Of a stretch of 22,920 nt of DNA, positions 1 to 22,920 are shown piece after piece. The stretch comes from a virus (Duplodnaviria > Heunggongvirae > Uroviricota > Caudoviricetes), in IMG/VR virus record IMGVR_UViG_2859777919_000008; one strand, written 5' to 3'. Position 1 is the first letter of the stretch. Every line of letters starts with the position of its first letter. The notes under the pieces were generated by a model. That model did no database searches. It saw only the letters and a list, made by a program, of their open reading frames with translations, and was not told the DNA's origin. Both the position numbers and the translations under genes were made by a program.

Positions 1-208
1 GAACACACCTCAAAAATGATAAATCCCTTATCTTTCATACACATAACAACACTTACTGGATAAAAAACAGACAACAAAACACGATAAAATACAATATCGC
101 ACATCAATTAAATCAATAAGTTAGCACTCCATTTCGAATGGCATATTACTAAAATATTAGTCACCGACACGAATTTGACAATGCCACAGATATTTTCGCG
201 ACTATTCA

Positions 209-236
209 GGGAGTATGACTCTCCCCGCTTTTGTTT
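209..236 (+). terminator. putative rho-independent terminator
   Basis: Hairpin gggag (209-213) / ctccc (221-225) with 7-nt loop followed by T-rich cgcttttgttt; would end a plus-strand transcript entering from the left edge of the window. Confidence 0.35.
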
Positions 237-258
237 ACCTGTATCAACGACCGTAAAC

Positions 259-391
259 ACTATGCCATAACAACTTCTGGCCAACTTCCCATTCGCTCAA
301 CAATCAACTCACTTCCGGCACAAATAAACGCATTACGTTGTAGATCGGTATTCTGGTCATTTGTTGATACGCGTACATAGCCAATAAGCAT
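259..391 (-). pseudogene. DNA invertase (Pin/Hin/Gin serine recombinase) N-terminal remnant
   Basis: Minus-strand ATG at 391 with SD-like aggggga 7 nt upstream; translation MLIGYVRVSTNDQNTDLQRNALICAGSELIVE matches the conserved N-terminus of Hin/Gin/Pin invertases (catalytic Ser in VRVST), then diverges and stops after 44 codons. Too short to be a functional recombinase. Confidence 0.5.
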
Positions 392-422
392 GGTAAATCC
401 CCCTGTTGGTAATGACTCCAAC

Positions 423-925
423 TTATTGATAGTGTTTTATGTTCAGATAATGCCCGATGACTTTGTCATGCAGCTCCACCGATTTTGAGAACGACAGCGA
501 CTTCCGTCCCAGCCGTGCCAGGTGCTGCCTCAGATTCAGGTTATGCCGCTCAATTCGCTGCGTATATCGCTTGCTGATTACGTGCAGCTTTCCCTTCAGG
601 CGGGATTCATACAGCGGCCAGCCATCCGTCATCCATATCACCACGTCAAAGGGTGACAGCAGGCTCATAAGACGCCCCAGCGTCGCCATAGTGCGTTCAC
701 CGAATACGTGCGCAACAACCGTCTTCCGGAGACTGTCATACGCGTAAACAGCCAGCGCTGGCGCGATTTAGCCCCGACATAGCCCCACTGTTCGTCCATT
801 TCCGCGCAGACGATGACGTCACTGCCCGGCTGTATGCGCGAGGTTACCGACTGCGGCCTGAGTTTTTTAAGTGACGTAAAATCGTGTTGAGGCCAACGCC
901 CATAATGCGTGCAGTTGCCCGGCAT
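423..925 (-). pseudogene. insB: IS1 InsB transposase, frameshifted
   Basis: InsB sequence is split over ORFs 665-925 and 423-689. The break follows ...AKSRQRWLF; the plus strand reads gtaaacag at 744-750 where canonical IS1 has gtaaaacag, a 1-nt deletion in a homopolymer run. This is distinct from the programmed insA-insB slip site. Confidence 0.8.
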
Positions 926-1119
926 CCAACGCCATTCATGGCCATATCAATGATTTTCTGGTGCGTACCGGGTTGAGAAGAGGTGTAAGTGAACTGCAGT
1001 TGCCATGTTTTACGGCAGTGAGAGCAGAGATAGCGCTGATGTCCGGCAGTGCTTTTGCCGTTACGCACCACCCCGTCAGTAGCTGAACAGGAGGGACAGC
1101 TGATAGAAACAGAAGCCAC
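844..1119 (-). CDS. insA: IS1 InsA
   Basis: 91 aa [46 protein letters not shown]..., recognisable as IS1 InsA with its zinc-finger/HTH N-terminus. Confidence 0.9.
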
Positions 1120-1189
1120 TGGAGCACCTCAAAAACACCATCATACACTAAATCAGTAAGTTGGCAGCATCACCTCATTCGTCTGTTCC

Positions 1190-1696
1190 TTAAATCTTCC
1201 AGGAAATTTCTGCATTGCCGTCAGCATCACCGGCACCTGTGAATTCAGCGTTGGTCAGCACCACGTTTTTGCCACTGACTGACGTGGACATGAATCCACC
1301 CAGCGGCACTTTGATGGATTCATCAGTGGAGACGACAACGTATACCGGATCGCCTTTTTTGATAGTGCTGGCATCAAAATCAGAACCGAGATTAACGGTC
1401 ACGTAGCCACGCTTCATGGCGTCGCCCGGGAAGTTCTTGCCTGTTCCCACCTGGCGAACCATGTCCGGCTGCGACGTGGTCGGATAAGGGCGCACGTAGA
1501 TCCCCTTCACCTTGTCTGCGGTATCACCATCTGCCAGCGGCACGAAAAAACCGTCATCATCGTATTTACCAGCCAGGCCATAGGCAGCGAAGGCGTTATC
1601 GGATTTAAGGACCACCGGTTCGACGGTTAAGTCCTGCGGGCGAGAGACAGCCCCGGCAATGCCAACAGGCATCCGGTACAGAAATACATTATTCAT
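1190..1696 (-). CDS. phage head-associated structural protein (function uncertain)
   Basis: 168 aa ORF immediately downstream of the head gene cluster, 3 nt after the preceding gene; its stop lies 15 bp from the IS1 end. Assignment is by gene context only. Confidence 0.5.
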   Translation of the reverse strand: MNNVFLYRMPVGIAGAVSRPQDLTVEPVVLKSDNAFAAYGLAGKYDDDGFFVPLADGDTADKVKGIYVRPYPTTSQPDMVRQVGTGKNFPGDAMKRGYVTVNLGSDFDASTIKKGDPVYVVVSTDESIKVPLGGFMSTSVSGKNVVLTNAEFTGAGDADGNAEISWKI

Positions 1697-1699
1697 TTT

Positions 1700-2920
1700 T
1701 TACCCTTTACGGTTTGCCCAGAATTCAGCGTTTTGTTTGTTCAGGGAAGCGATACTGGTCATGCCCATGTTTAGGCGCTGTGCATCGCCGGTGGTGGCGC
1801 GGGTGTTTCGCCCTTTGGCAACCTCAGACACGGCATTAAACGCCATGTCGACCGATTGTTTCGGTAATTTGCGGATATCCGCATCACCGACTATCTGGCG
1901 AACCAGCGTTTTGTCAGCAGAAGCCAGAACCTCGCGTTTGAACGCGGTCGGTTTCATCTTACGGCTCAGATCGATACCCGGAACGATAACTTCGGCACGC
2001 CAGGCTGAGTCACCAGTAATCGTGGTTTCCTCTTCATCGTCCTCGCCGTCACCGGTCGGATTATCGTCAGGCTTATTATCGTTATCGCCCGTGGCATTTC
2101 TTTCCAGCTTAGCCAGCAGGGCTTTCAGTAATGTTTTGAGGTCATCATCACTGTCGCCGGTTGGATCTCCGCCCATCTCTGGTGCTTTGTCCGGTAGTGG
2201 TTGCTGCGGGGACAGGTTGATGTTGAGATTAACGCCCTGCGGCAAATCCCCCTCATCTCCTGTAACCGATGCGGGAGCCGACTCCACCAGTTCGTTCATG
2301 GTGTCGGCATCTCCTGTCTTGATGGCCGCACGCATGCGGTTCCACCAGTTTTTCTTTTGATTTGCCATTGTGTCTCTGTCTCCAATTGCACAACGATTTC
2401 CGGCTCTGCCTTTAGGGACAAGAGCCACATGGTTTCCGGTAATATCGACCTGCTCGGCTTTACCTGGCTCGGTCTGCTCGTACTCCGCGTCATAGCCGCA
2501 CGACACTTCGCGCAGGCCATCTTCGATAAGCTGAATGGCGCTTTCGTCTTTGACGATAAGGTCAGCCAGCATCAAATCAGACTGCTCACCCGTCCCGCGC
2601 CGGACATTCTGGAGGTGCCCGACAGCAAGCTCTTTCCAGTTCTCGGGATTTACCAGCCGCACATTCCCGTTTTCATCTTCAGGATGCAGGATCGTGATGC
2701 TCATCCCTTCGAATGAGGCAAGCGTGGCCGGATGGAATACCTGCTCAGGAGAACGCGTGACGACTATTTCACCGAACTTATCGGGTTTCAGTTTTGGCAG
2801 GTCATCAGCACCATAGAGCTGCTTACCTGTTCGTCCTATCGGCACGTCTTTGCACAGCAACGAGCCGTCAGCCAGGCGGTATCGGGTTTCCCCGAGCCTG
2901 GTCTCAAAAAAGTATTTCAT
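1700..2920 (-). CDS. phage head protein, scaffold/maturation-like, with acidic Gly/Asp-rich linker
   Basis: 406 aa ORF tightly packed after the head morphogenesis gene; contains a long acidic low-complexity linker (TGDSDDD...GDGEDDEEE) typical of scaffold-type head proteins. Exact family not resolved. Confidence 0.5.
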   Translation of the reverse strand: MKYFFETRLGETRYRLADGSLLCKDVPIGRTGKQLYGADDLPKLKPDKFGEIVVTRSPEQVFHPATLASFEGMSITILHPEDENGNVRLVNPENWKELAVGHLQNVRRGTGEQSDLMLADLIVKDESAIQLIEDGLREVSCGYDAEYEQTEPGKAEQVDITGNHVALVPKGRAGNRCAIGDRDTMANQKKNWWNRMRAAIKTGDADTMNELVESAPASVTGDEGDLPQGVNLNINLSPQQPLPDKAPEMGGDPTGDSDDDLKTLLKALLAKLERNATGDNDNKPDDNPTGDGEDDEEETTITGDSAWRAEVIVPGIDLSRKMKPTAFKREVLASADKTLVRQIVGDADIRKLPKQSVDMAFNAVSEVAKGRNTRATTGDAQRLNMGMTSIASLNKQNAEFWANRKG

Positions 2921-2923
2921 GGG

Positions 2924-3706
2924 TTATGCTGCCCTTTTCATTGCGAATGGAACGCGAACAAACACGATCTCTTTATAGCAGCGGCAGTTTGGCAGCTCGC
3001 CCGCGTGGCCGGTCATGCCGTCCAAAGTTGGAGGTGAATCCCAGCGGACGAATTTACCTTTCATGTGATCGTGGGAATCTCGGACATCGCCATCATCGGC
3101 TGTACGCCAAATATAACCATCCGAGCCAATAGCTATCGCTCGGGCCATATCCAGCGCGCCCGTTGCTCTTCCCAGTTCCGTTCGGGCAATCAGATCGGCC
3201 CTAGACTTAGCAACATCGCCGGTAGATGCAATCTCTTTAGCAAACTGCTCCGCCCGACCACCGGTGACAACAGCCTCTATCGCTTTGTTCTGGATGTCGT
3301 ACACCCTGTCTGCGGCCTCGAGAGGCAGAGATTTGATGTACTTGACCTGTTCGGCGATGATGGATTGCATCACCTGGCCCACAGGAGCGCTTTCCACAAG
3401 ATTGCGGAGCTCGCGACTGATGTTCTTGCTGTGTTGCCGCCAAACTTTCTCGTTCTGCCGGGTTAGGTCCGCAGTAAAGTTTTCCGCGACCTTTGTCGCC
3501 CAGGGGGTGATGATTTCACTGTAACGCTCCAGCGCCGCAATAATTTCCGTGATACTGTCATTTGAACCATCGTAGCGACCATTTACGATGTCTCCGACCG
3601 CCCTCGCTATCCTGCGTAGGCTGGTTCGATACCGGATTTCCGCCTGACGGCTCCTGCGGTTCGTCATCAGGTTCGCCGATGCCGGGCGGCGCTTCATCTT
3701 CGGCAT
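2924..3706 (-). CDS. phage head morphogenesis (minor head) protein, SPP1 gp7 / Mu F-like
   Basis: 260 aa ORF following the portal gene, family-like C-terminal region (...IWRTADDGDVRDSHDHMKGKF...LPNCRCY). The annotated start overlaps the portal 3-prime end by about 149 nt, so the true start is uncertain. Confidence 0.65.
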   Translation of the reverse strand: MPKMKRRPASANLMTNRRSRQAEIRYRTSLRRIARAVGDIVNGRYDGSNDSITEIIAALERYSEIITPWATKVAENFTADLTRQNEKVWRQHSKNISRELRNLVESAPVGQVMQSIIAEQVKYIKSLPLEAADRVYDIQNKAIEAVVTGGRAEQFAKEIASTGDVAKSRADLIARTELGRATGALDMARAIAIGSDGYIWRTADDGDVRDSHDHMKGKFVRWDSPPTLDGMTGHAGELPNCRCYKEIVFVRVPFAMKRAA

Positions 3707-5024
3707 TCTCGATGTCCTCGTCGGTAATGGATGCCCCGATGCCGGTTACGTCAGAATTTTCTCGCAAATCAGTCATAGCGGCTTTCAGTGTCATCAGACC
3801 ATCACCCAGCGCCGTACTGATTGCGTTGGTGGTGTTTAACGCCACCGTTGAGCGATCGACATCAGACATTTGCCAGAGCGGGTTAAACTCAAACGTGAAA
3901 TCGTCCGGCAGCGGCTTGCCAAGTTCCGAACGATGCATGATGTCCAGTATCCGCCGCACCGGAAGACGTAAACGCCTCTCCTGCAACGAACTGATGCGAT
4001 CGTAATAGTTGGCAAGGTCTGCATCACCGGTAGAAAATCCTTTCGGGGACTGTCCGAACAACCGCACCAGTGGGATACCAACAGCGCCACTAATCTGTTC
4101 TACAAACTGCGAAAGGATGTCATCCAGACCACTGAAGCTGTACTGATGGGTTTCAAACTTATCCCGCGAGTCCATGAGCGTCATGCCTTCATTACTCTGG
4201 AACTGTCGAATCAGGTCGATATTCTTCAGCAACGCTTCATACGCAGGACCACCAAGTGCGATAAGCTCGCGTAGCTTCTCCACGCTGTAGGTACGCAAAT
4301 GCGCCTTGTAGACCAGCTGCGCCGCGCCGACAGTAGCGCTGTCGAACGCGGTAAGACGATCCCAGATACGCTCTACAACCGACATTCCCCATTCGTTCTC
4401 GGTCATCTTCTGCTGAAATGGCAACGTGACGCCATCAAAGCGAATCAGGCGACTGTGATGAATGCGCCAGGCAGGAATTCCCGTTGCTGTGGTCACCACA
4501 TCGTAAAACTCAGGTTTACCCAGGTCCGGCCCCATATCTTTAATGCGGCGGGTCAGTGCCGGGTCGACCATCCAGCGGTCGAGCGGGAGAATCCCCTTAA
4601 ACTTGCCCTTACCGATGGTTTCGGGTCGCAGCGGGGTCATTGGTGCCTACCCCTCAATCATGATGAAACCCACCGCGCCGCCGTAGAGGCGCGACCATTT
4701 CAGCACGTCATTCAGCGCATCCCAGATTTGCAACTCATCCAGTTGTGATTCGAGAATGCCACGATCTTTTGCATCAATTTCCGAAGTGATGCGAATGCCT
4801 TTGCGGGTCATATCATCCGGGATAGCATCGACTGCTTCGCCGATGATCTAGGATGAACGATAGGACCATTCCACCAGCATGCGGTTACGACTGGTGAAAT
4901 TAGCCCGGTAGGTGGATGCTGAGTGCTGGTTAGGTGTCTGCATCCCTACGCGGGCAATAAAATTCTCATAACCATCAGCTGTGGCCTGCACAGTTCGCCG
5001 CAGGGCTTGTTTGTTTCGTGCCAT
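3558..5024 (-). pseudogene. phage portal protein with two in-frame amber (TAG) codons
   Basis: ATG at 5024-5022 overlaps the large terminase stop (TGATG). One continuous frame runs to the stop at 3558 (488 sense codons) and is broken only by TAG at codon 59 (plus-strand cta 4848-4850) and TAG at codon 126 (cta 4647-4649). The 360 aa ORF 3558-4640 is the C-terminal part; the N-terminal part reads MARNKQALRRTVQATADGYENF... Confidence 0.7.
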
Positions 5025-6454
5025 CAGGCCTGTCTCCCCAGCTGTTCCCAGATATCCAGCGATGTATCGATTGGCGCGAAGGCCATAATGAATGCATCAG
5101 CAACGTTTGGTGACGGTATCTCGCGTTTTGCGAGGTCTTTTTTACTTTCGACCATCACACGTCCGTTACGGTCGAAATCACGATGAGGTGTTGTCAGTTC
5201 CAGTTTCAGCTTTTCAAGCAACGGACAACGAGAATCTATGCTGATCAGCTCATCCACAGGATACTGTTCTCCGTTGTTAATGGCGTTAAACGTATTTCTG
5301 AAACGGTCAGCCACCAGCCACCATGCCTGAGCCTTAAGATTTGCGAAAAAGTCTTTGTTGGGGATGCCGTTGTACTCGTCATCTGGCTCATGCACACCAG
5401 CACCGGCGTTAAACCTCTGGTAATTCACACGTCGCGCGTATGCGTTCTCGCTCTTCCGGTCAGCGTTAATTTCAGAGAATTTAGCACCGGCAGACGCACC
5501 AACACCGATAGAGTCGTAAACAATATCTGCTTCACGCTCCAGCGCCGCCTGATAAGTACGCTGGCAGCTCTTCAGTAATTCATCTTCTTTGGCCTTCCAT
5601 TCGTCGGCCCAGAAAACAACGGATCCGTGACGGTAAACGTTAGCGCACTTATCTGTACCACTGTCAGCCACGTCAAAGCCAATACGCTTTCTTCCACTGG
5701 GTTCGAAATTTAACGTTTTGTGCGCATCCACTGCGGCTTCTATCCAAGACAGTTTGATGATTGCCGCATCATCATCAGACTCCGGAACGCCCTCATACAC
5801 ATGTTTAAAACCATCCGGATCACGGCGTCGCGCCGCGTCGATAACCTTAAGCATGGTGTCAGACAGAAACGGATTTTCGTCATAGTTAATTTTGCGGATG
5901 AGAGTGCCTTCGGGCGGATCAACAACGAAGTTGCGCCAGACGAAATCAGTAACAAGTCCGGGGTTGAATATGAACCAGCATTCCGAACCCTCTTTACGGA
6001 TCGTTGGCTCCAGAATTTTCCACTGGTATTCCGTCAGTGCGTGGGCTTCTTCCAGCCACAACACATCGATCCCCTCCAGTGACTTAATTTCTTCGATGTT
6101 GCGCCATAATCCATAAAAAACAAATTCCGAGCCAGTAACCCGGTTAATGATTTTGTTGTTCAGAATACGGAAACGGTGCCGCAGACCAAACCTGTCTATC
6201 TGAATTTTGAGCAGGGTATACACCGACTCTTCGATTTTATTCTGGATCTGACGGGCACAACAAAAACGCAGGGTGTATTTATTCGACAGAAATATGGCAA
6301 TGCCAGCGGCATCCCATGATTTTGACGATGACCGACCACCATAAAGCACTTTGTTACGTGCCCGCATAGTCCAGAAACTACGTAAAGCCGGATTCAGCGT
6401 CGGTTTGGATGTCAGAGTAGAAGTCATTGAGGTCACGCTCTCCATTGCCATCAT
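5024..6454 (-). CDS. phage terminase large subunit
   Basis: ORF 5024-6535 carries a Walker A-like motif (YGGRSSSKSW) followed by a nuclease-type C-terminal region. A likely start near the internal Met cluster (MMAME, about 6454) overlaps the terS 3-prime end; start codon uncertain. Confidence 0.8.
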   Translation of the reverse strand: MMAMESVTSMTSTLTSKPTLNPALRSFWTMRARNKVLYGGRSSSKSWDAAGIAIFLSNKYTLRFCCARQIQNKIEESVYTLLKIQIDRFGLRHRFRILNNKIINRVTGSEFVFYGLWRNIEEIKSLEGIDVLWLEEAHALTEYQWKILEPTIRKEGSECWFIFNPGLVTDFVWRNFVVDPPEGTLIRKINYDENPFLSDTMLKVIDAARRRDPDGFKHVYEGVPESDDDAAIIKLSWIEAAVDAHKTLNFEPSGRKRIGFDVADSGTDKCANVYRHGSVVFWADEWKAKEDELLKSCQRTYQAALEREADIVYDSIGVGASAGAKFSEINADRKSENAYARRVNYQRFNAGAGVHEPDDEYNGIPNKDFFANLKAQAWWLVADRFRNTFNAINNGEQYPVDELISIDSRCPLLEKLKLELTTPHRDFDRNGRVMVESKKDLAKREIPSPNVADAFIMAFAPIDTSLDIWEQLGRQA

Positions 6455-7142
6455 CAATACCTGCATCACGGCGAAGACGATCAGCCTCCAGAGACACCTT
6501 ATCAGTGGCGGCCTTGCGGTAGGCTGTATCAGCAAATATTTTTCCTACCGTCGCAAGCGTGCCAACGATGGACTCAATACGAACTGTATTGCGCATCATT
6601 GCTTTCTCGGCGGCGCTGATATTTTCAATCAGCATCTTCCTTTCCTGGTCCCCATTAGCATCTTCCAGCGACACCAACCACCGACCAATATTCTCTGCAG
6701 CGACAAGGTTGTTAGCACGAAGGCGAAATAATTCGTCCTCGAGCGTCAACGCTTTAGCGTCCTCTATCACCTCATCTTTGAGCAGAAGGCGACGGGCATA
6801 ACCACCGTGTTTTAATGCCTGCTGGTTACCGGGTTGGAATGGGTTAGTCGGGGGATCGGTACGCATTCCGCGTATCGGTTTCGTATCCGGTGTAGATTCT
6901 GTTTTTAGTTGCGTACTTTTTTGTGTAAGGCCAGTAATGGCAGGCTTTCTGCTGGTACGCACTTTCCTTTTTTGCGTACCATTTTTGCAAACCTGCGTAC
7001 CGCCACTGCGTGCCCAACCAAGCTTTTTGGCCCTCTTCCTGATAGCCCCTTCTGTAACGCCGTATTTCTCGCCTATATCACGGAGGCTAAGGACTCCGGC
7101 CCGGTATGCCGATTCGATGGCCTCCCAGTCCGGTTTTGCCAT
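6378..7142 (-). CDS. phage terminase small subunit (HTH DNA-binding)
   Basis: 254 aa ORF directly upstream of and overlapping terL; N-terminal HTH-like segment (LSLRDIGEKYGVTEGAIRKRAKK). Confidence 0.7.
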   Translation of the reverse strand: MAKPDWEAIESAYRAGVLSLRDIGEKYGVTEGAIRKRAKKLGWARSGGTQVCKNGTQKRKVRTSRKPAITGLTQKSTQLKTESTPDTKPIRGMRTDPPTNPFQPGNQQALKHGGYARRLLLKDEVIEDAKALTLEDELFRLRANNLVAAENIGRWLVSLEDANGDQERKMLIENISAAEKAMMRNTVRIESIVGTLATVGKIFADTAYRKAATDKVSLEADRLRRDAGIDDGNGERDLNDFYSDIQTDAESGFT

Positions 7143-7336
7143 GATTATGCTTCCTGTGATTTACTGTTATCGCTGCCTGTCACAATAGGTTGCTTTAATT
7201 CTTCCTCATCACTCACTCCTGCGACGCTCCGTGGCAGGGCCCCCCACAGGAGTACCTTGTAAATGTAAGGTGTTTAAGCCTAAATTAAGTCGTATCACGG
7301 TTAAATAGCAAAGAAAAATTCACAGAAGGAAAGACA

Positions 7337-7849
7337 TTGATGGAGTGGATAAATGCTTTGATGAACTATTTTGTACTTCATCCATATCGCCTATGGGGGC
7401 TTCTTTTTATAATAGCGTTCACAAAATCCACTTTACTCATTTCGGCGATATTGCCACCAGCATCAATTATGATGGCCACTGTAATTACAGTCAGCAAGAC
7501 GACTCTTTCACCATGGGAAGCTGGAATCACGGTCATGAGTGGCGCATGGTGCGGTACTATCGTTAATTACCATCTTGGTATAATAATTGGGCATATCCCT
7601 CAACTTGCATGTATAATATCAAGCCGTTCCAATACAATAGAACGGGTTCGCCTTCAGTTGCAAAATAACTCTGTGTCAATACTTTTCACTTCGCGCTTTA
7701 TCGCCGTGCTGCGTTATATTGCTCCTTTGGTGGCAGGAATGTTGCAACTTCATCCAGTGAAAGTGTATACAGTGAGTCTGATTTCAGCTGCTAGCTGGTC
7801 AGCACTTTATGTTGGTAGTTTTAGCTTCGTGTTGCCTTTTTTTAGCTAA
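7337..7849 (+). CDS. DedA-family (VTT/SNARE-associated domain) inner membrane protein
   Basis: 170 aa hydrophobic ORF, AT-rich codon usage, opposite strand to the flanking phage genes. Motifs ILPPASIMMATV and SRFIAVLRYIAPLVAGM resemble DedA signatures (compare E. coli YqjA GRFIAFVRTLLPTIAG). Confidence 0.5.
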   Translation: MMEWINALMNYFVLHPYRLWGLLFIIAFTKSTLLISAILPPASIMMATVITVSKTTLSPWEAGITVMSGAWCGTIVNYHLGIIIGHIPQLACIISSRSNTIERVRLQLQNNSVSILFTSRFIAVLRYIAPLVAGMLQLHPVKVYTVSLISAASWSALYVGSFSFVLPFFS

Positions 7850-7937
7850 ACTGCCCATAAAAAGCTCTTGCGAATCCAGCTTCCCCCATTCCTCTGACAA
7901 CAGAATCTGATTTGAAGGATAATGAGTAAAATTACCG

Positions 7938-8408
7938 CTACCCCCCAAGGCATTGGATCCTGATGTACTCCTGAAGCATTCTCAATGCTGTCTGGTCGCT
8001 GATGATTCCGTCCCGGATACCGAGAACGTTTCGTCCAGCAACTGGAGAGAGTTCGACGGTGGCATCATTGCCCATGCCGGAGGCGCTGGAGGTTTCGGCT
8101 GAGGATGGCACAGGGCATTTTCCTTTGACGAGCACCCGACCACCATTATCAAGCTTGCGCCGAAGAGCATCATTTTCAGCTTTCGCATCAGCTAACTCCT
8201 TCGTGTATTTAGCATCGAGTGCATCAGCATCACGCTGGCGCTGCTGCATGTCAGTAATGGTTGCGTTCGCCAGCTTCAGTTCTCTTGCGTTTTTGTCGCG
8301 CTGCTCTTTGTAGGTAATGGCGTTATCACGGTAATGATTAACAGCCCATGACAGGCGGACGATGATGCAGATAACCAGAGCGGAGATAATCGCGGTGACT
8401 CTGCTCAT
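7938..8408 (-). CDS. Rz-like i-spanin (lysis)
   Basis: ORF 7938-8420; probable start [17 protein letters not shown]... at 8408 overlapping the endolysin stop. N-terminal TM segment plus coiled-coil region as in lambda Rz. Confidence 0.75.
7982..8188 (-). CDS. Rz1-like o-spanin lipoprotein, embedded in Rz
   Basis: ORF in an alternative frame wholly inside Rz: [22 protein letters not shown]... with lipobox (VVGC) and proline-rich region ([16 protein letters not shown]), the lambda Rz1 architecture. Exact start uncertain. Confidence 0.7.
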
Positions 8409-8902
8409 TGCTGCCCCCACAAACAGACTTCACGCTCAATCTCACGACGGGTCATCAGCCCTTTCCATTGCTTACCGCCAGCATATGTCCAGCGACATAG
8501 CTGGTCACATGCGCCTTTGATATAGCCCTGGTTTATTTTGCGAAGAAGCGTCGATGTTCTGAAATTGCCAGCGCCCACGTTGTAAACGAACGAGTAAAGA
8601 GCGCCGCGCGTTGTTTCCGGTATATCGACTTTGATGTACGGGTTAATTTGTCTGGCGACAGTGGCAAGGTCTTTATTCAGGAGAGCTTTGCATTCTGCTT
8701 CGGTATACGTTTTACCAGGCATGATGTCTTTTCCGGTGTGTCCGTGACATACAGTCCATACACCAATGATATCTTTGTATAGTATGTAGCTGACACCTTC
8801 CAGACCATCGTTACCACCTGGGCCAGTGATTAACACAGATGCTATAGCAACAGCCCCGCCACCAATAGCAACTGCAACAGCCTTGCGTAATGATGGCGAC
8901 AT
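8405..8902 (-). CDS. phage endolysin, lambda R / lysozyme family
   Basis: 165 aa [42 protein letters not shown]...[21 protein letters not shown], closely resembling lambdoid prophage lysozymes (RrrD/RrrQ type) with an N-terminal signal-anchor-like segment. Confidence 0.9.
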
Positions 8903-9015
8903 TATTCACCTCTCGCAGCCTTACTAGACTGGCCCCCTGAATCTCCAGACAACCAGTATCACTTAAATAAGTGATAGTCTTAATACTAGTTTTTAGACTA
9001 GTCATTGGAGTACAG

Positions 9016-9381
9016 ATGATTGATGTCTTAGGGCCGGAGAAACGCAGACGGCGTACCACACAGGAAAAGATCGCAATTGTTCAGCAGAGCTTTGAACCGG
9101 GGATGACGGTCTCCCTCGTTGCCCGGCAACATGGTGTAGCAGCCAGCCAGTTATTTCTCTGGCGTAAGCAATACCAGGAAGGAAGTCTTACTGCTGTCGC
9201 CGCCGGAGAACAGGTTGTTCCTGCCTCTGAACTTGCTGCCGCCATGAAGCAGATTAAAGAACTCCAGCGCCTGCTCGGCAAGAAAACGATGGAAAATGAA
9301 CTCCTCAAAGAAGCCGTTGAATATGGACGGGCAAAAAAGTGGATAGCGCACGCGCCCTTATTGCCCGGGGATGGGGAGTAA
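9016..9381 (+). CDS. insC: IS2 InsC (OrfA)
   Basis: [56 protein letters not shown]..., recognisable as IS2 OrfA; the ORF track starts 15 codons earlier. Confidence 0.9.
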
Positions 9382-10244
9382 GCTTAGTCAGCCGTTGTCT
9401 CCGGGTGTCGCGTGCGCAGTTGCACGTCATTCTCAGACGAACCGATGACTGGATGGATGGCCGCCGCAGTCGTCACACTGATGATACGGATGTGCTTCTC
9501 CGTATACACCATGTTATCGGAGAGCTGCCCACGTATGGTTATCGTCGGGTATGGGCGCTGCTTCGCAGACAGGCAGAACTTGATGGTATGCCTGCGATCA
9601 ATGCCAAACGTGTTTACCGGATCATGCGCCAGAATGCGCTGTTGCTTGAGCGAAAACCTGCTGTACCGCCATCGAAACGGGCACATACAGGCAGAGTGGC
9701 CGTGAAAGAAAGCAATCAGCGATGGTGCTCTGACGGGTTCGAGTTCTGCTGTGATAACGGAGAGAGACTGCGTGTCACGTTCGCGCTGGACTGCTGTGAT
9801 CGTGAGGCACTGCACTGGGCGGTGACTACCGGCGGCTTCAACAGTGAAACAGTACAGGACGTCATGCTGGGAGCGGTGGAACGCCGCTTCGGCAACGATC
9901 TTCCGTCGTCTCCAGTGGAGTGGCTGACGGATAATGGTTCATGCTACCGGGCTAATGAAACACGCCAGTTCGCCCGGATGTTGGGACTTGAACCGAAGAA
10001 CACGGCGGTGCGGAGTCCGGAGAGTAACGGAATAGCAGAGAGCTTCGTGAAAACGATAAAGCGTGACTACATCAGTATCATGCCCAAACCAGACGGGTTA
10101 ACGGCAGCAAAGAACCTTGCAGAGGCGTTCGAGCATTATAACGAATGGCATCCGCATAGTGCGCTGGGTTATCGCTCGCCACGGGAATATCTGCGGCAGC
10201 GGGCTTGTAATGGGTTAAGTGATAACAGATGTCTGGAAATATAG
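9339..10244 (+). CDS. insD: IS2 InsD (OrfB, DDE transposase domain)
   Basis: 301 aa ORF overlapping insC in the -1 frame, recognisable as IS2 OrfB. Confidence 0.9.
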
Positions 10245-18023: not shown

Positions 18024-18770
18024 ATGAAAAATATTGCGACAGGCGGCGTTCTGGAACGCATCCGCCGACTGACCCCGCCACATGTAACCGCCCCATTCAG
18101 AACGGTAGCGGAGTGGCGCGAGTGGCAACTTGCTGAAGGCCAGAAACGTAGCGAGGAGATCAACCGCCTGAATCGCCAGTTGCGGGTGGAAAAAATTCTG
18201 AATCGCTCAGGCATCCAGCCGTTGCACCGTAAATGCTCGTTTGCGAATTACCAGGTGCAGAACGACGGCCAGCGATACGCGTTAAGCCAGGCGAAATCCA
18301 TCGCCGATGAACTGATGACCGGGTGTACAAATTTTGCGTTCAGCGGAAAACCTGGTACCGGGAAGAATCACTTAGCGGCAGCTATCGGGAATCGCCTGCT
18401 GAAAGACGGTCAGACAGTGATTGTGGTTACCGTGGCTGATGTTATGAGCGCCCTGCACGCCAGCTATGACGACGGGCAGTCAGGCGAAAAATTTTTGCGG
18501 GAGCTGTGCGAAGTGGATCTGCTGGTTCTTGATGAAATTGGCATTCAGCGCGAGACGAAAAACGAGCAGGTGGTGCTGCACCAGATTGTTGATCGCCGGA
18601 CAGCGTCGATGCGCAGCGTGGGGATGCTGACAAACCTGAACTATGAGGTGATGAAAACATTGCTCGGCGAGCGGGTGATGGATCGCATGGTCATGAACGG
18701 CGGGCGCTGGGTGAATTTTAACTGGGAGAGCTGGCGTCCGAATGTTAGCCATTCGAGGGTTGTTAAGTAG
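18024..18770 (+). CDS. dnaC: DnaC-like replicative helicase loader (AAA+)
   Basis: 248 aa; ...SFANYQVQNDGQRYALSQAKS...NFAFSGKPGTGKNHLAAAIGNRLL...VDLLVLDEIGIQ...IVDRR...MLTNLNYEVMKTLLGERVMDRM... aligns along its length with E. coli DnaC (Walker A GKPGTGKNHLA, Walker B LLVLDE). Confidence 0.9.
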   Translation: MKNIATGGVLERIRRLTPPHVTAPFRTVAEWREWQLAEGQKRSEEINRLNRQLRVEKILNRSGIQPLHRKCSFANYQVQNDGQRYALSQAKSIADELMTGCTNFAFSGKPGTGKNHLAAAIGNRLLKDGQTVIVVTVADVMSALHASYDDGQSGEKFLRELCEVDLLVLDEIGIQRETKNEQVVLHQIVDRRTASMRSVGMLTNLNYEVMKTLLGERVMDRMVMNGGRWVNFNWESWRPNVSHSRVVK

Positions 18771-18784
18771 TTTCAGGAGGATTT

Positions 18785-19207
18785 ATGGCGAAACCTTTTA
18801 CTCCCGAACAGCGGGAAGAACTGAAGACGCGAATTGTGGAACTCGTGCATCAGGACGGTCGGGTCACGATTCGGCAGTTGTCAGATGAAACAGGTATCAG
18901 TCGTGCGTCTGTCGGTCGCTTATGCATAGAACTGGTCGCAAGTGGTGATGTATATAATTCTGGCTACGGCTTATTCCCGTCTGAACAGGCTCGCAAGGAC
19001 TGGCAAAGCGCCCGCAAAAAACTCTCGAGAGTAAAGGTGAGGAAACCGGTTGTTGTTGATCCGGACCTTATCTGGTCATTACCTGACGGAGAAATACGCC
19101 GCTACGACAGGCGCCTGAATATAATCTGTCGCGAGTGCCGGAAGAGCGAAGCTATGCAGCGTGTACTGGCTTTCTATCAGGGTAATTTTCAGGAGGCGAT
19201 ACTGTGA
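18785..19207 (+). CDS. hypothetical prophage protein with predicted winged-helix DNA-binding N-terminus
   Basis: 140 aa ORF with good coding character; N-terminal HTH-like segment (VTIRQLSDETGISRASVGRLCIELVASGDV). Confidence 0.45.
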   Translation: MAKPFTPEQREELKTRIVELVHQDGRVTIRQLSDETGISRASVGRLCIELVASGDVYNSGYGLFPSEQARKDWQSARKKLSRVKVRKPVVVDPDLIWSLPDGEIRRYDRRLNIICRECRKSEAMQRVLAFYQGNFQEAIL

Positions 19208-19264
19208 ATGAAATTAGCTATCAGGCTTCAATTACCGCTGGCATTCGCATCAAAGGAGAGGAGC

Positions 19265-19621
19265 ATGGAAATAAAACCAGAAGATGAGTTAAGCAATATC
19301 GTTTTATTTCCGGTAAAAGAGGATGACCCTCGTAATCAGGTTAATTTTCTTTATGAGCCATCGGAAAGACCATATTGCCATCACGCCTCTGTACGGGTTG
19401 ACGAAAAAGAGCGTCAGGTCCGCTGTAAAATCTGCGGTGCGGTTGTGGAGCCGTTTGACTGGATGCTCTCTGTGGCAAAAAGAGAAACCAGACTGGCAGA
19501 TGATGTAAGGCTATTGCGCCAGGAGGAACAGGAAAGGCGGAGAAATATAGAAAAGCTGATACAGATTGAGCGTAACGCGAAAGCGCGGATACGCAGGGCG
19601 ACAAAATCCAGAACTGAATAA
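19265..19621 (+). CDS. hypothetical prophage protein with zinc-ribbon-like Cys/His motif
   Basis: ORF 19208-19621; the internal start at 19265 (MEIKPEDEL...) has a strong SD (aaaggagaggagc). Contains CHH...CKIC and a basic/coiled C-terminus. Confidence 0.45.
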   Translation: MEIKPEDELSNIVLFPVKEDDPRNQVNFLYEPSERPYCHHASVRVDEKERQVRCKICGAVVEPFDWMLSVAKRETRLADDVRLLRQEEQERRRNIEKLIQIERNAKARIRRATKSRTE

Positions 19622-19768
19622 TTAAATTTAGCACTGTTAAAAATTTAATCCTTAACCGGAGGGATTTCTGCACCCTCAAATCATCAGGAGACCACCCGAA
19701 AGGGCGGGGAGCAGTCACACATCTGTTTCCGATAGCCCCGTTCTAATGCTACACTCTTTGATATTTTT

Positions 19769-20455
19769 ATGACCCCAATAAACATATTTATGACAGTTGC
19801 TGATTTCAAACGGCCCAAATTGGAGCTCCCAAACGGGGCAAACAAACTACTACTGCACTCTTGCTGTGCTCCATGTTCCGGTGAGGTGATGGAGGCGCTT
19901 CAGGCCTCGGGAATCGACTACACCATCTTTTTCTACAACCCGAACATTCATCCTCAGAAAGAGTATTTAATTCGTAAGGATGAGAATATTCGCTTTGCTG
20001 AACAACACGGCGTGCCGTTTATTGATGCTGATTACGACACAGACAACTGGTTTGAACGAGCCAAAGGAATGGAATGGGAGCCCGAACGAGGGATCCGTTG
20101 CACCATGTGTTTTGACATGCGTTTTGAGCGGACAGCGCTGTACGCCGCTGAAAATGGTTTCAGTGTGATCAGCAGTTCACTGGGCATTTCACGCTGGAAA
20201 AATATGCAGCAGGTTAACGACTGTGGGCGGCGAGCCGTCGCGCATTATCCGGGCATGGTGTACTGGGATTATAACTGGCGCAAGCAGGGCGGCTCGTCCC
20301 GTATGATTGAAATCAGCAAGCGCGAAAAATTCTATCAGCAGGAATATTGTGGCTGTGTGTATTCTCTGCGCGATACCAATCTACACCGCAAATCTCAGGG
20401 ACGCCCTCTTATCAAAATTGGTCAACTCCACTACGGTAAAGAAGAGAAGGAGTGA
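19769..20455 (+). CDS. queH: QueH-like epoxyqueuosine reductase (DUF208 family, Fe-S)
   Basis: 228 aa; family-like motifs [38 protein letters not shown] and [11 protein letters not shown] (QueH cluster-binding Cys signature). Start may be the internal Met at 19790. Confidence 0.7.
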
Positions 20456-20476
20456 TTTTATGGGGCACCTTTCTGA

Positions 20477-20506
20477 TTGATTTCATATTGGCGAGGTAAG
20501 TAGAAT
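20477..20506 (+). promoter_or_regulatory. putative sigma70 promoter of the hok mRNA
   Basis: -35 ttgatt (20477-20482), 18-bp spacer, -10 tagaat (20501-20506); the predicted start about 20511-20513 coincides with the 5-prime element that pairs with the mRNA 3-prime end. Confidence 0.4.
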
Positions 20507-20682
20507 GACTGCGGGTGCTTGAGGCTATCTGCTTCAGGCATGAACACCAAAAGGCAGATAGAGAAAAGCCCCAGTTAACATTACGCGTCCGGCAAGACGC
20601 TTAACATTAATCTGAGGCCAATTTCATGCTTTGCACATGTAGGTTAGCCTCTTACATGCCGAAAGGCAAGGAGAAGCAGGCT

Positions 20683-20838
20683 ATGAAGCAGCAAAAGGCG
20701 ATGTTAATCGCCCTGATCGTCATCTGTTTAACCGTCATAGTGACGGCACTGGTAACGAGGAAAGACCTCTGTGAGGTACGAATCCGAACCGGCCAGACGG
20801 AGGTCGCTGTCTTCGTAGACTACGAATCCAGGAAGTAA
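20683..20838 (+). CDS. hok: Hok/Gef-family type I toxin (membrane-depolarising peptide)
   Basis: MKQQKAMLIALIVICLTVIVTALVTRKDLCEVRIRTGQTEVAVFVDYESRK (51 aa) is nearly identical over most of its length to E. coli HokD/RelF and HokC/Gef; the ORF track starts 19 codons earlier in the same frame. Confidence 0.85.
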   Translation: MKQQKAMLIALIVICLTVIVTALVTRKDLCEVRIRTGQTEVAVFVDYESRK

Positions 20839-20915
20839 GAGTGACCGGGCGGGGAGCTGATCCCATCCCCGCCCACCTCTGATGTGTCAGGCATCCTCAA
20901 CGCACCCGCACTTAA

Positions 20916-20958
20916 CCCGCCCATCGCTGTGATCTCTCAGCGTTTCGGCGGGTTTTTT
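20916..20958 (+). terminator. rho-independent terminator of the hok transcript
   Basis: Stem cccgcc (20916-20921) / ggcggg (20947-20952) enclosing an inner hairpin cgctg/cagcg, followed by tttttt (20953-20958). Confidence 0.5.
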
Positions 20959-21087
20959 GTTGTTTATTTCCGGTGAATTTGATTCGCGCACCTTCGCAGA
21001 TAGAATCGACTCACTTAAGTAGCGCGCAGGGAGAAGAGGGATGGACCCCGAACAGGGGAGAGCTATTTATCTGGAAGGATTCTGAAG

Positions 21088-21375
21088 ATGAAAATCGAAG
21101 AATTGCGTGAAATTTTTAGTGAAAATGGCCTCTATGCTGTGCGCGTTGAGAATGGAGCGATTGTCAGCCATTGCCGCATTAGATGTTTGCAATCTCAACA
21201 AAGGAAGAGCGGTGCTGTGTTATTTTATTTTTGTAATGGACTTCTGACGGACGGTTTTATTTTGCGTGAGGACGAATTTGTCACATCATTACGGGTTTTG
21301 AAAGAGATTGGTTTTAAGGCTGGTTTTCTGCTTTTGCTGAAGAATAAACTCATCTACAATCTTGAGCAGGATTGA
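21088..21375 (+). CDS. hypothetical small prophage protein
   Basis: 95 aa ORF, AT-rich, overlapping the next ORF start by 4 nt (atga); no recognisable motif. Confidence 0.35.
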   Translation: MKIEELREIFSENGLYAVRVENGAIVSHCRIRCLQSQQRKSGAVLFYFCNGLLTDGFILREDEFVTSLRVLKEIGFKAGFLLLLKNKLIYNLEQD

Positions 21376-21720
21376 ACTCCTGCTGTGTAACACCGTGCCA
21401 CCGGAGAAAGCCGATGGCACATATACAACTGGTCAAACAAACCTCTTCCGGATTACTTCTCCCGGCGACGCCGGAGAGTTGCGATTTTCTGCATCAAATC
21501 AAAATAGGTGAGTGGATACACGCAGACTTTAAGCGTGTGTGTAACTACGCATTCCACAAGCGTTTTTTCAAACTCCTGCAACTGGGTTTCGATTACTGGA
21601 CTCCGGTCGGTGGGGCGATCACGCCTCGCGAACGAAAACTGGTGTCCGGTTTCGTTGATTACCTGTGTGAATCAGTAGGCCGGGAACATACGCCAGCTCT
21701 GAGCGAAGCCGCAGAGCAAT
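21372..21720 (+). pseudogene. hypothetical prophage protein, 3-prime end interrupted by IS600
   Basis: ORF 21372-21767; the native sequence (probable start MAHIQLVKQ... at 21414) ends at ...SEAAEQL where the IS600 end (tgaggtgtactggc, 21721) begins; the last residues of the called ORF are IS-derived. Confidence 0.45.
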
Positions 21721-21763
21721 TGAGGTGTACTGGCAATAGCGGACACTACCATTTGTTCTTTTT

Positions 21764-22582
21764 TTAAGCAGCCATCTGATGATATTTTTCCCTGAAGGCT
21801 GCCGGGGAGATATTCCCCAGACGAGAGTGACGACGCTGACGATTGTAGAAAATCTCAATGTATTCCCGTATTACTGAGATGGCTTCATCCCGGTTATTAA
21901 AACGATAGTGGCTCAGGCTCTCATTTTTCAGCGTTCCCCAGAAGCTTTCCATCGGAGCGTTGTCGTAACAGTTACCTTTACGCGACATTGATGTTTTCAG
22001 ACCAGACTGCTCCTGTATGACCCGGTAATCGTATGCGCAGTACTGTGAACCTCGATCAGAGTGGTGGATTAGCCCGGCAGGTGGGCGCTGGCTCCTGAGC
22101 GCCATAAACAGGGCTTTACCTGTCAGCTCTTTTGTCATGCGCTCTCCCATGGCGTAGCCGACAATTTCGCACGTATAAACATCTTTGATGCCAGCGAGGT
22201 ACAACCATCCCTCCTGTGTGGCAACATACGTCAGGTCCGCCACCCAGACCTGATTTGGTGCTGTAGGAGCGAACGTCTGGTTCAGCAGATTTGGCGCAAC
22301 TGGCAGATTGTGGTTCGAGTTCGTAGTCGCTCTGAACTTGCGTTTCTGCTTACAGCGTAGCCTTAGCTCCTTACGAAGACGTGCCAGTCGGTCACGACCA
22401 ACGATGATGCCATTCTCTGCCAGCTCCGTCTGGAGCCGCCGGGTTCCATATGTTTCGCGAGTGCGGATATGTGCCACCTTAATCTCCAGTTTTAGCCGCT
22501 CATCACTTTGTTTTCTGTCTGAGGGTTCATGCTGTACCCAGTTGTAATAACCGCTCCTGGATACACCAAATACCTGACACAT
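21764..22582 (-). CDS. IS600 OrfB (DDE transposase)
   Basis: 272 aa, identical in protein sequence to the OrfB of the copy at 16120-16938. Confidence 0.9.
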   Translation of the reverse strand: MCQVFGVSRSGYYNWVQHEPSDRKQSDERLKLEIKVAHIRTRETYGTRRLQTELAENGIIVGRDRLARLRKELRLRCKQKRKFRATTNSNHNLPVAPNLLNQTFAPTAPNQVWVADLTYVATQEGWLYLAGIKDVYTCEIVGYAMGERMTKELTGKALFMALRSQRPPAGLIHHSDRGSQYCAYDYRVIQEQSGLKTSMSRKGNCYDNAPMESFWGTLKNESLSHYRFNNRDEAISVIREYIEIFYNRQRRHSRLGNISPAAFREKYHQMAA

Positions 22583-22617
22583 CGCTTCAATGGGAAATTG
22601 TTGTCGCCATTGTTCGA

Positions 22618-22920
22618 TTAACGCGTATTTTTCAGCGACTCCTGTGCAAAATACGCTGTTGCTTTTTTTAATATATCTCGCTCAAGGCGAGCTTCATTTA
22701 ACGCCTTACGCAGTTGCAGAATTTCAGATTCCAGTTCAGCCACCGTGCGGGAACCAGGAGTACCGAGCCCTTTTCTGGCGGCGGTAACCCATTGTCCTAA
22801 AGTGCCTTCAGGAAGAGATAATCGGGAAGCGCCTTCACTGATCGAAAGTTGATTTTCAGGAACCGTTCTGACAGCTTCGGCTTTGAACTCTTTAGAGTAA
22901 CGTTGGGTTTTTCTGCTCAT
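22618..22920 (-). CDS. IS600 OrfA
   Basis: 100 aa; differs from the other two copies by one residue (VRTVPENQ vs VRTVLENQ; plus-strand cagg vs caag near 22857). Confidence 0.85.
   Translation of the reverse strand: MSRKTQRYSKEFKAEAVRTVPENQLSISEGASRLSLPEGTLGQWVTAARKGLGTPGSRTVAELESEILQLRKALNEARLERDILKKATAYFAQESLKNTR

Follow-up and report, generated by a model that had tools for sequence, protein, structure and literature searches.

Why would a prophage carry its early genes on one strand and its late genes on the other? The question is raised by the window, by which we mean the whole 22,920-nucleotide stretch of IMG/VR record IMGVR_UViG_2859777919_000008. The initial annotation read it as a non-inducible cryptic prophage shaped by inversion and deletion mediated by insertion sequences (IS). 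The best explanation, and a very probable one, is that the window is the remnant of a ~43-kb, ipaH-bearing lambdoid myovirus prophage at the pgl/ybhA site of Shigella sonnei, dismantled by insertion sequences and point mutations. The damage amounts to seven IS copies, three large deletions, one inversion of 6 kb, and several point mutations. Our main reference is a relative free of IS that occupies this site, between pgl and ybhA, in the chromosome of Escherichia coli FDAARGOS_944 (NZ_CP065613.1, locus L012); an equal map was obtained against locus L002. Gene functions were assigned with Pfam and PHROGs, and sok with Rfam, while the S. sonnei species and lineage labels are taken from PMC5447701 and PMC6456863. 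The features are as follows.

1..407, no strand: pgl-proximal prophage end, with the pgl upstream region and a DNA-invertase (pin) remnant at ~296-391; 99.8% identical to L012 519-925 and to FDAARGOS_943
408..1174, minus: IS1, 767 bp
1175..1178, minus: major capsid gene, last 4 nt (start codon plus 1)
1190-1696, minus: cement protein, intact
1700-2920, minus: DUF2213 head-protease-like protein, intact
2924-3706, minus: Mu-F-like head morphogenesis protein, intact
3558..5024, minus: portal pseudogene (Phage_portal_3), nonsense codons at positions 59 and 126 of the translation
5024-6427, minus: terminase large subunit (TerL; Terminase_3), intact
6378-7142, minus: terminase small subunit (TerS), intact
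7337-7849, plus: DedA/VTT-domain membrane protein (Pfam VTT_dom), a moron, intact; 100% amino acid identity to the relative
7938-8408, minus: Rz-like lysis protein, intact
8405-8902, minus: RrrD-type lysozyme, intact
8902..10453, minus: class II holin gene, split by IS2
8925-10255, plus: IS2
10464-11912, plus: ISEc20 (IS110 family), upstream of the holin gene
11913..12450, minus: phage intergenic DNA that lies upstream of the holin gene and closes the native-orientation late block (L012 27950-28488)
12451-13698, plus: IS911, both ends kept
13699-14404, minus: truncated IS600 (copy Z), end-proximal 706-712 bp
14420-14572, minus: ydfA-like gene
14776-15183, minus: DicA-like repressor
15260-15487, plus: DicC/Cro gene
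15471-15892, plus: ydaT pseudogene, frameshifted by a 1-bp deletion
15970-18017, plus: replication-initiator pseudogene, with an IS600 and two frameshifts
16077-17340, minus: full IS600 in the replication-initiator gene
18024-18770, plus: DnaC-like loader, ydaV
18785-19207, plus: DUF977 gene
19265-19621, plus: hypothetical gene
19790-20455, plus: QueH
20513-20688: sok (Rfam match)
20683-20838, plus: hokD
21088-21375, plus: Rem-like gene
21414-21720, plus: DUF1367 gene, truncated at codon 102
21721..22920, minus: terminal IS600, running 64 bp past the window end

The late block is largely as first described. Its head, packaging, and lysis genes (cement, DUF2213, Mu-F-like, portal, TerL, TerS, Rz-like, lysozyme, and holin) occupy the minus strand between 10453 and 1190; a further gene of the block, the DedA/VTT moron, is on the plus strand as in the intact relative. 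The head accessory genes (Pfam/PHROG) share 99.5-100% amino acid identity with the relative, and the terminase subunits (phrog_370) are 99.8% and 100% identical to those of relatives. The Rz-like and lysozyme genes were called by comparison with the relative and Pfam, and the split holin gene by the same comparison and IS mapping. The head cluster does end 15 bp from IS1, with the cement-protein ORF ending at 1190 and IS1 at 1174. Like the initial annotation, we find no major capsid or tail genes in the window, the sole remnant being 4 nt of the capsid gene: window position 1175 corresponds to L002 36731, and the start codon of the DUF2184 gene is L002 36728-36730. The DUF2184 protein of L002 matches Pfam Major_capside and phrog_264. 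The morphogenesis module is SEN34-like (or vB_EcoM-689R2-like) and incomplete; TerS, TerL, Mu-F-like, DUF2213, and cement are intact and the portal gene is not. Measured against the full SEN34-like set, which includes the PF09950 capsid and DUF3383 sheath, the neck, sheath, tube, and baseplate genes are all missing, as is the capsid gene beyond its 4 nt. The portal gene is called as the same three pieces (58, 54, and 360 aa) in other S. sonnei assemblies, including that of strain 53G.

The cro-side early genes occupy 15260-21720 on the plus strand, again as first described (DicC/Cro-like, ydaT, replication initiator, DnaC-like, DUF977, QueH, hokD, Rem-like, and truncated DUF1367). The DicA-like and DicC/Cro-like genes are divergent (Pfam HTH_3 and P22_Cro for the repressor pair) and ydfA sits beside dicA, the arrangement seen in Qin; the immunity region is of the DicA/DicC type. 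Searches of the window found no tRNA genes. Neither did we find a Q-like antiterminator, as already reported. Because the window ends inside IS600, this absence is not decidable from the window alone. In near-identical S. sonnei assemblies, however, a truncated int and then modC follow right past the terminal IS600, so Q is truly gone from the locus: the gene sits in a missing 1.8-kb stretch and not past the window edge. Its counterpart in the intact relative is a DUF1133 protein that matches Pfam Phage_antitermQ at 29.4 bits (cut-off 26) and phrog_753, "Q-like".

With capsid, tail, Q, xis, and half of int lost, and the portal, holin, and replication genes broken, gene content predicts that a productive cycle is impossible, in line with the description of a non-inducible cryptic prophage. 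Judged in this way, the element would have lost excision, replication, late antitermination, holin lysis, and particle building. Still intact in the window are the DicA/DicC-like regulators, hok/sok, QueH, the DedA-family protein, terminase, and lysozyme. We also observe that the inversion cuts off the early promoter from the genes for lysis and packaging, in an element that has lost its Q-like gene and kept the regulators, hok/sok, QueH, and the DedA-family gene intact.

Which of the two modules was turned around? The order in L012 is co-linear (int, DicA/DicC immunity, replication, hok, Q-like gene, tRNAs, lysis, terminase, head, tail, and ipaH), as the initial annotation had assumed for an intact lambdoid genome. 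Locus L002 and S. sonnei 53G are co-linear as well; the window splits its modules between strands (early plus, late minus). No relative with the gene order of the window was found outside S. sonnei. The FDAARGOS_944 prophage has the same integration site as the window and is 99.4-99.8% identical in nucleotide sequence across every retained segment. Unlike the window, it is co-linear and nearly complete (~43 kb), with few annotated pseudogenes, and it carries int, xis, RecE, Gam, Rha, the Q-like gene, four tRNAs, the major capsid gene, a full contractile tail, and ipaHb. FDAARGOS_943 holds an IS-bearing twin of this prophage, and a partial "DNA invertase" is annotated there beside pgl. No att core repeat of at least 11 bp was found between the two L012 prophage ends.

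The breakpoints can be placed exactly on L012. The late block and both chromosomal flanks of the window are in native orientation, with the late genes (1175-10463) on the minus strand as in L012, and it is the early block, 14405-21720, that is flipped in place (6.06 kb of phage DNA, L012 36313 to 30257). The deletion at IS1 removed 19.1 kb (L012 926-20000): it begins 4 nt into the major capsid gene, takes in the tail genes, and reaches ipaH. The one at IS911 took 1.8 kb with the four tRNAs, the Q-like gene, DUF1364, and the C terminus of DUF1367, and the third, at IS600 just beyond the window, 6.9 kb from Rha to the N-terminal part of int.

All of the large deletions thus adjoin IS1, IS911, or IS600, and at each edge of the inverted block lies an IS600 end that lacks a target duplication. 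IS1 (99.5% identical to annotated IS1A) has no target duplication and mismatched flanks (ccccctgtt / TCATTCGTC), with a private 1-bp deletion near 749. The IS2 in the holin gene is a simple insertion (99.85% identity, 5-bp target duplication CTTAC). The IS110-family, IS911, and truncated IS600 elements reported at the module junction are ISEc20, IS911, and a 706-bp IS600 fragment; that inventory is correct in what it lists, and it left out the IS2 and the full IS600 in the replication gene. ISEc20 and IS911 are 99.4-99.5% identical to RefSeq-annotated copies, and the IS600 copies 99.8% identical to annotated ones. These five elements were named on such near-identity, with a duplication where the insertion is simple. 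ISEc20, which 53G lacks, is a simple insertion; a 1-bp deletion near 11231, private to the window, breaks its transposase ORF. The rearrangement breakpoint is instead the junction of IS911 and the IS600 fragment: IS911 lacks a target duplication (CAA / GGT), shares an ancestral left junction with 53G, and meets an internal IS600 position at its right end. The intact end of that fragment, Z, borders the inverted block on its ydfA-like side. The full IS600 within the replication gene inserted simply (3-bp duplication GGT) and is absent from 53G. The terminal IS600 has DUF1367 on its left (AAT), the C-terminal half of int on its right (GTT), and no duplication.

The order of events can be approached through S. 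sonnei 53G, of lineage II, which is co-linear, keeps the Q-like gene, and has an intact DUF1367; the inversion therefore arose within S. sonnei. Strain 53G has the same IS911 left junction, the same Z junction beside ydfA (there with a 291-bp IS600 fragment), and an IS600, Y, that simply interrupts int with a GTT duplication and whose right junction is identical to that of the terminal IS600. As the comparison shows, the IS1 deletion, the portal nonsense codons, the IS2 in the holin gene, IS911, Y, and Z predate the inversion. Comparison with 53G also shows that Y and Z were mutually inverted in the pre-inversion state.

It is tempting to picture a single flip between the IS600 copies that now flank the block. 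These are direct repeats, however, as are all three copies in the window. They cannot be the pair that recombined, which excludes a one-step flip, and two recombination events are needed. The earlier proposal of IS mediation thus stands, though not by a single exchange between the flanking copies. We infer that an IS600, X, would first have inserted into DUF1367. In one route (A), X and Y, being inverted, would recombine homologously and flip L012 30257-43243, and the right end of IS911 would then anchor a deletion running into Z. In the other (H'), an IS911-anchored inversion into Z would come first, after which X, by then direct to Y, would recombine with Y and delete the DNA between them. 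The two routes are equally short. The mismatched AAT/GTT flanks of the terminal IS600 fit an exchange of X by Y, as inversion in route A or deletion in route H', with the partner junction deleted. The IS911-anchored step may have been transposase-mediated, or a second IS911 copy may have recombined homologously. ISEc20 came later, as did the IS600 that interrupts the replication gene. Among the loci returned, none had the inversion without the IS911-side deletion, and none an IS911-bounded inversion with intact DUF1367.

Could the early block instead have come from a paralogous prophage, as an IS600-flanked composite transposon or as a circle re-integrated into the int IS600? The block and its flanking IS600 copies are inverted as one unit, as such an event predicts, and Shigella genomes hold several related prophages (e.g., L001). 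Yet the identical block (100% identity over 4 kb) is found in 53G at this very locus, natively oriented and joined to Z in the same way, and the coordinates lost and those kept together account exactly for one single prophage. No genome has a native-orientation copy alongside the inverted one, the scaffolds hinting at mobility have N-gaps at IS600, and more steps are required than in routes A or H'; we consider a two-prophage chimera very unlikely. A composite transposon in another prophage (L006, L010) was rejected as a candidate, both scaffolds having N-runs at their IS600 borders.

An assembly artefact, with the early block mis-oriented or mis-joined at collapsed IS600 copies, is more improbable still. 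Within 9 kb there are three almost identical copies of IS600, the draft scaffolds L006 and L010 put part of the early block in other contexts across N-gaps, and the window has three private 1-bp deletions, each within an IS copy. However, CP022457.1, CP019689.1, CP049179.1, LR213449.1, JBEAAA010000004.1, and further assemblies match the window at ≥99.93% identity, and the recurrence of order and junction sequences in at least eight independent chromosome-scale S. sonnei assemblies from different projects argues against a mis-join. Some of these complete genomes may be reference-guided; for 75/02, scaffolding and gap closing were used. Unique flanks are consistent on both sides of every IS, and a population variant (L005) has an extra deletion that starts from the window arrangement. 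Among E. coli genomes in a collection without Shigella-labelled genomes, whole-window megablast returned no record covering ≥80%, and the three IS600 junctions were found in none of 5,426 complete E. coli genomes at ≥80% coverage. 

The least tenable history is the one-step inversion, to which we give next to no credence: the block does have IS600 ends without target duplications on both sides, but recombination between inverted repeats leaves inverted copies, recombination between direct repeats deletes, and pre-inversion 53G has no IS600 in DUF1367. An in-place flip by an inverted IS600 pair exactly at the block ends was likewise rejected, as the wrong IS600 end meets ydfA.

The IS-mediated dismantling of one prophage is supported by the alignment with the IS-free relative, the comparison with 53G, and recurrence in S. 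sonnei. It provides a stepwise record of how IS600, IS911, IS1, and IS2 took apart a prophage in one recent clone, of which lineage II is co-linear and lineage III has the inversion, and the junctions at 12451/13698/14404 and 21720/22984 could serve as lineage markers. Selection, rather than neutral decay, might have favoured the inversion, though we think this unlikely; if it did, this inversion and the independent flips of the prophage in other Shigella lineages could represent convergent disarming of a potentially lethal element with useful cargo retained.

How does the window compare with known systems? It corresponds to 75/02pp10 of S. sonnei 75/02 (CP019689, 3461614-3492646), falling at ~3462135-3485055 with 99.99% identity over the 11.5 kb compared. 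That prophage was called "Intact" by PHAST score, with Salmonella phage SEN34 as suggested homolog, and the inversion, deletions, and pseudogenes were not described (PMC5447701). Our phage search likewise points to SEN34; by gene content, contrary to the published call, 75/02pp10 is defective. The practical value is limited. For this region of a published S. sonnei genome, automatic annotation reported an "intact prophage", and wrongly so. The E. coli K-12 prophage Qin has an immunity and early region of the same type, with amino acid identities (tblastn of K-12 Qin proteins against the window) of 62% for DicA, 72% for DicC, 92% for YdfA, 90% for HokD, and 68% for Rem; its dicB/dicF region was not found in the window. 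Both are defective remnants, but Qin has another integration site, a Q of the YdfT type, and different late genes, and it has kept the co-linear order. In Shigella, many copies of IS1, IS2, IS600, and IS911 break genes and seed inversions and deletions, and IS-driven genome rearrangement and prophage decay are reportedly described in comparative Shigella genome papers (Yang et al. 2005; Hawkey et al. 2020). The same prophage has been rearranged otherwise, independently, in S. flexneri 5 str. 8401 and other Shigella-type genomes; in that S. flexneri strain and in CP049281.1, different IS pairs have flipped it. An S. sonnei prophage remnant is a well-known, ordinary kind of object that implies nothing biologically new; the window does not differ in kind from IS-driven Shigella decay, of which it is one worked example.

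By its sequence, the window belongs to the chromosome of Shigella sonnei. Look-ups of its ORFs by exact protein led to chromosome-scale S. sonnei assemblies that match it at 99.93-99.99% identity, among them CP019689.1 (S. sonnei 75/02, lineage IIIc) and CP022457.1 (S. sonnei 2015C-3566; names from PMC5447701 and PMC6456863). In CP019689, the window lies at ~3462135-3485055, inside prophage region 75/02pp10, a 31-kb region that PHAST labeled "Intact" and whose listed homolog is Salmonella phage SEN34 (PMC5447701, Table 3). The gene content contradicts this label: there are no capsid, tail, Q, or xis genes and no complete integrase. In an otherwise ordinary object, this mismatch with a published call is the sole mildly useful point. 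In a phage search, SEN34 and Escherichia phages vB_EcoM-689R2/611R5 came out as the closest deposited phages in the head and packaging genes.

An undamaged relative, ~43 kb and free of IS, occupies the same site, between pgl and ybhA, in E. coli FDAARGOS_944 (NZ_CP065613.1; locus L012, our coordinate reference). Read in the window's orientation, its leftward part comprises pgl, the pin remnant, ipaHb, tail fibres, baseplate, sheath and tube, neck, major capsid (PF09950), cement protein, DUF2213, Mu-F-like, and portal; next TerL, TerS, DedA (opposite strand), Rz-like, lysozyme, holin, four tRNAs, DUF1133, DUF1364, and DUF1367; and last Rem-like, hokD, QueH, DUF977, DnaC-like YdaV, replication initiator, YdaT, and Cro/DicC-like. 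Rightward are the DicA-like repressor, ydfA-like, Rha, YdaE, RecE, Gam, AAA ATPase, xis, and int, then ybhA. The early-right and late genes are all leftward and therefore co-linear, as is the rule for any lambdoid phage; the initial annotation had assumed this order for an intact genome, and L012 bears it out. On L012, the window maps as follows.

Features of the window and their L012 equivalents
1-407, pgl upstream region and pin remnant; L012 519-925
408-1174, IS1 without target duplication
1175-8924, minus strand, late genes; L012 20001-27750
8925-10255, IS2 within the holin gene, CTTAC duplication
10256-10463, remaining holin gene; L012 27746-27953
10464-11912, ISEc20, simple insertion
11913-12452, intergenic phage DNA; L012 27950-28488
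12451-13698, complete IS911 without duplication, its right end adjoining the IS600 fragment
13699-14404, 706-bp IS600 fragment, intact end toward the early block
14405-21720, early block, inverted; L012 36313 down to 30257
16077-17340, IS600 inside the early block, simple insertion, GGT duplication
21721-22920, terminal IS600, extending past the window end

The late block and both chromosomal flanks keep the native orientation, and only the 6.06-kb early block is flipped. The initial annotation had described early and late modules in opposite orientations and proposed alignment to an intact relative as a check; against the co-linear L012, the inversion of the block is confirmed. The IS elements it listed are present, though further copies went unlisted. 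It was also right that Q, major capsid, and tail genes are missing. At IS1, L012 926-20000 (19.1 kb) is gone, with ipaHb, all tail and neck genes, and the major capsid gene, and phage DNA restarts 4 nt inside the capsid ORF. Also missing is L012 28489-30256, with the four tRNAs (ARAGORN found none in the window), the Q-like gene, DUF1364, and the C-terminal half of DUF1367. The Q-like gene is DUF1133, which in L012 occupies the expected Q position, exceeds the Pfam Phage_antitermQ threshold, and has the PHROG match "anti-termination protein Q-like." S. sonnei assemblies nearly identical to the window show what lies beyond the last IS600: the element abuts the C-terminal half of int (L012 43241 onward), after which comes modC. 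Therefore, no Q lies just outside the window edge, and L012 36314-43240 (Rha, YdaE, RecE, Gam, xis, and the int N terminus) is lost too. Beyond the window, next to the int-side end, S. sonnei (lineage III and 53G) lacks 749 bp, most of ybhA (L012 43914-44662); no IS lies at this junction (12244/12245 in S. sonnei locus L004).

Could the arrangement be an assembly mis-join at IS copies, which the initial annotation named as grounds for refutation? The order recurs in independent S. sonnei assemblies, so it is not mis-joined: JBEAAA010000004.1 reproduces window 1-14641, and CP049179.1, CP022457.1, and LR213449.1 reproduce the order from ~4.8-5.6 kb to 22920, so that overlapping loci of independent projects recover all of it. 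S. sonnei GCA_965230885.1 has an additional deletion derived from this arrangement (window 13562-16076), which reaches as far as the left terminus of the IS600 in the replication gene. Lost with it are the 3' end of IS911, the IS600 fragment, ydaT, and the ydfA-like and DicA/DicC-like genes; in the S. sonnei population, the remnant is still decaying. Two draft scaffolds place part of the early block in another prophage (CXIN01000012.1, L006; CXFC01000008.1, L010). We discounted them because N-runs stand at the IS600 borders (gaps inside IS600 at L006 11436-11446 and L010 4637-4673 and 11446), and their joins are likely scaffolding mis-joins at IS copies.

IS-mediated inversion and deletion, the initial interpretation, is supported, with the refinement that the history took two steps, not one flip. 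All three IS600 copies in the window are direct repeats, which excludes a flip by recombination between two flanking copies. An intermediate genome is added by S. sonnei 53G (HE616528.1, lineage II), which preserves the earlier, pre-inversion state. Common to 53G and the window are the IS1-linked deletion, both portal stops, the holin-gene IS2, and the IS911 left junction, but 53G is co-linear, has intact DUF1367, DUF1364, and Q-like genes, and lacks both ISEc20 and the replication-gene IS600. One 53G copy, Y, is a simple IS600 insertion in int (GTT duplication) whose right junction is that of the window's terminal IS600; another, Z, is a fragment whose junction with the ydfA-like end is identical to the window's. 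The relative orientation of Y and Z is inverted in 53G and direct in the window. 53G also carries a tandem IS600 pair between the RecE and Rha remnants (L032 5665-8097), a full copy followed by one missing 97 bp at one end.

From a 53G-like state, the window would result precisely from three events, for which two orders are possible. In route A, a new IS600 (X) would enter DUF1367 inverted to Y, X-Y recombination would flip L012 30257-43243, and a deletion anchored at the IS911 right end would extend to an internal point of Z. In route H', an IS911-mediated inversion into Z would come first, X would then insert direct to Y, and X-Y recombination would delete the DNA between. Both routes are consistent with the flanks of the terminal IS600, AAT (DUF1367) and GTT (int), which do not match. 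The partner junctions are deleted. No intermediate of either route was found among the genomes examined, and none of the three IS600 junctions occurs at at least 80% coverage in 5,426 complete E. coli genomes. By comparison with 53G, the inversion evidently took place within S. sonnei.

Smaller lesions have accumulated as well. In-frame stops interrupt the portal gene at codons 59 and 126, ydaT (15471-15892) has a 1-bp deletion, and the replication-initiator gene has two frameshifts besides IS600; other S. sonnei assemblies have the same portal fragments and ydaT product. S. flexneri 5 str. 8401 (L036 10001-10306) has exactly the same 101-aa ydaT frameshift product, and this pseudogenization would be either older than the S. 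sonnei/S. flexneri split or exchanged between them. Three 1-bp deletions are private to the window against every other S. sonnei assembly compared, at ~749 (IS1), ~11231 (ISEc20), and ~13270 (IS911), the latter two disrupting transposase ORFs; these may be genuine inactivating mutations, or errors in the consensus of the source assembly where sequence is repeated. Intact genes remain on the late side (cement protein, DUF2213, Mu-F-like, TerL, TerS, DedA-family, Rz-like, lysozyme) and on the early side (DicA-like, DicC-like, YdaV, DUF977, QueH, hokD with sok, Rem-like). The hok/sok locus (20513-20838) is wholly intact, with HokD 100% identical to the relative and sok at 117 bits in Rfam (gathering score, 59); it may stabilize the remnant. 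Also intact are two cargo genes without an obvious phage role, both 99.5-100% identical to the relative. One (7337-7849), within the late operon on the other strand, encodes a DedA/VTT-domain membrane protein; the second (19790-20455), in the early operon, encodes epoxyqueuosine reductase QueH.

IS-driven rearrangement and prophage decay are hallmarks of Shigella genomes, and this prophage has been rearranged differently and independently elsewhere, again with IS at the boundaries. S. flexneri 5 str. 8401 (CP000266.1) has an inversion of L012 27241-38486 with respect to the pgl/ipaH end, at IS600, and CP049281.1 (locus L022) has one of the early region with respect to int and ybhA, at IS911. 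Qin of K-12 has the same type of immunity and early region (Qin/DicA), with amino acid identities to the window of 62% for DicA, 72% for DicC, 92% for YdfA, 90% for HokD, and 68% for Rem. However, the two are distinct prophages, at different sites and with different late genes.
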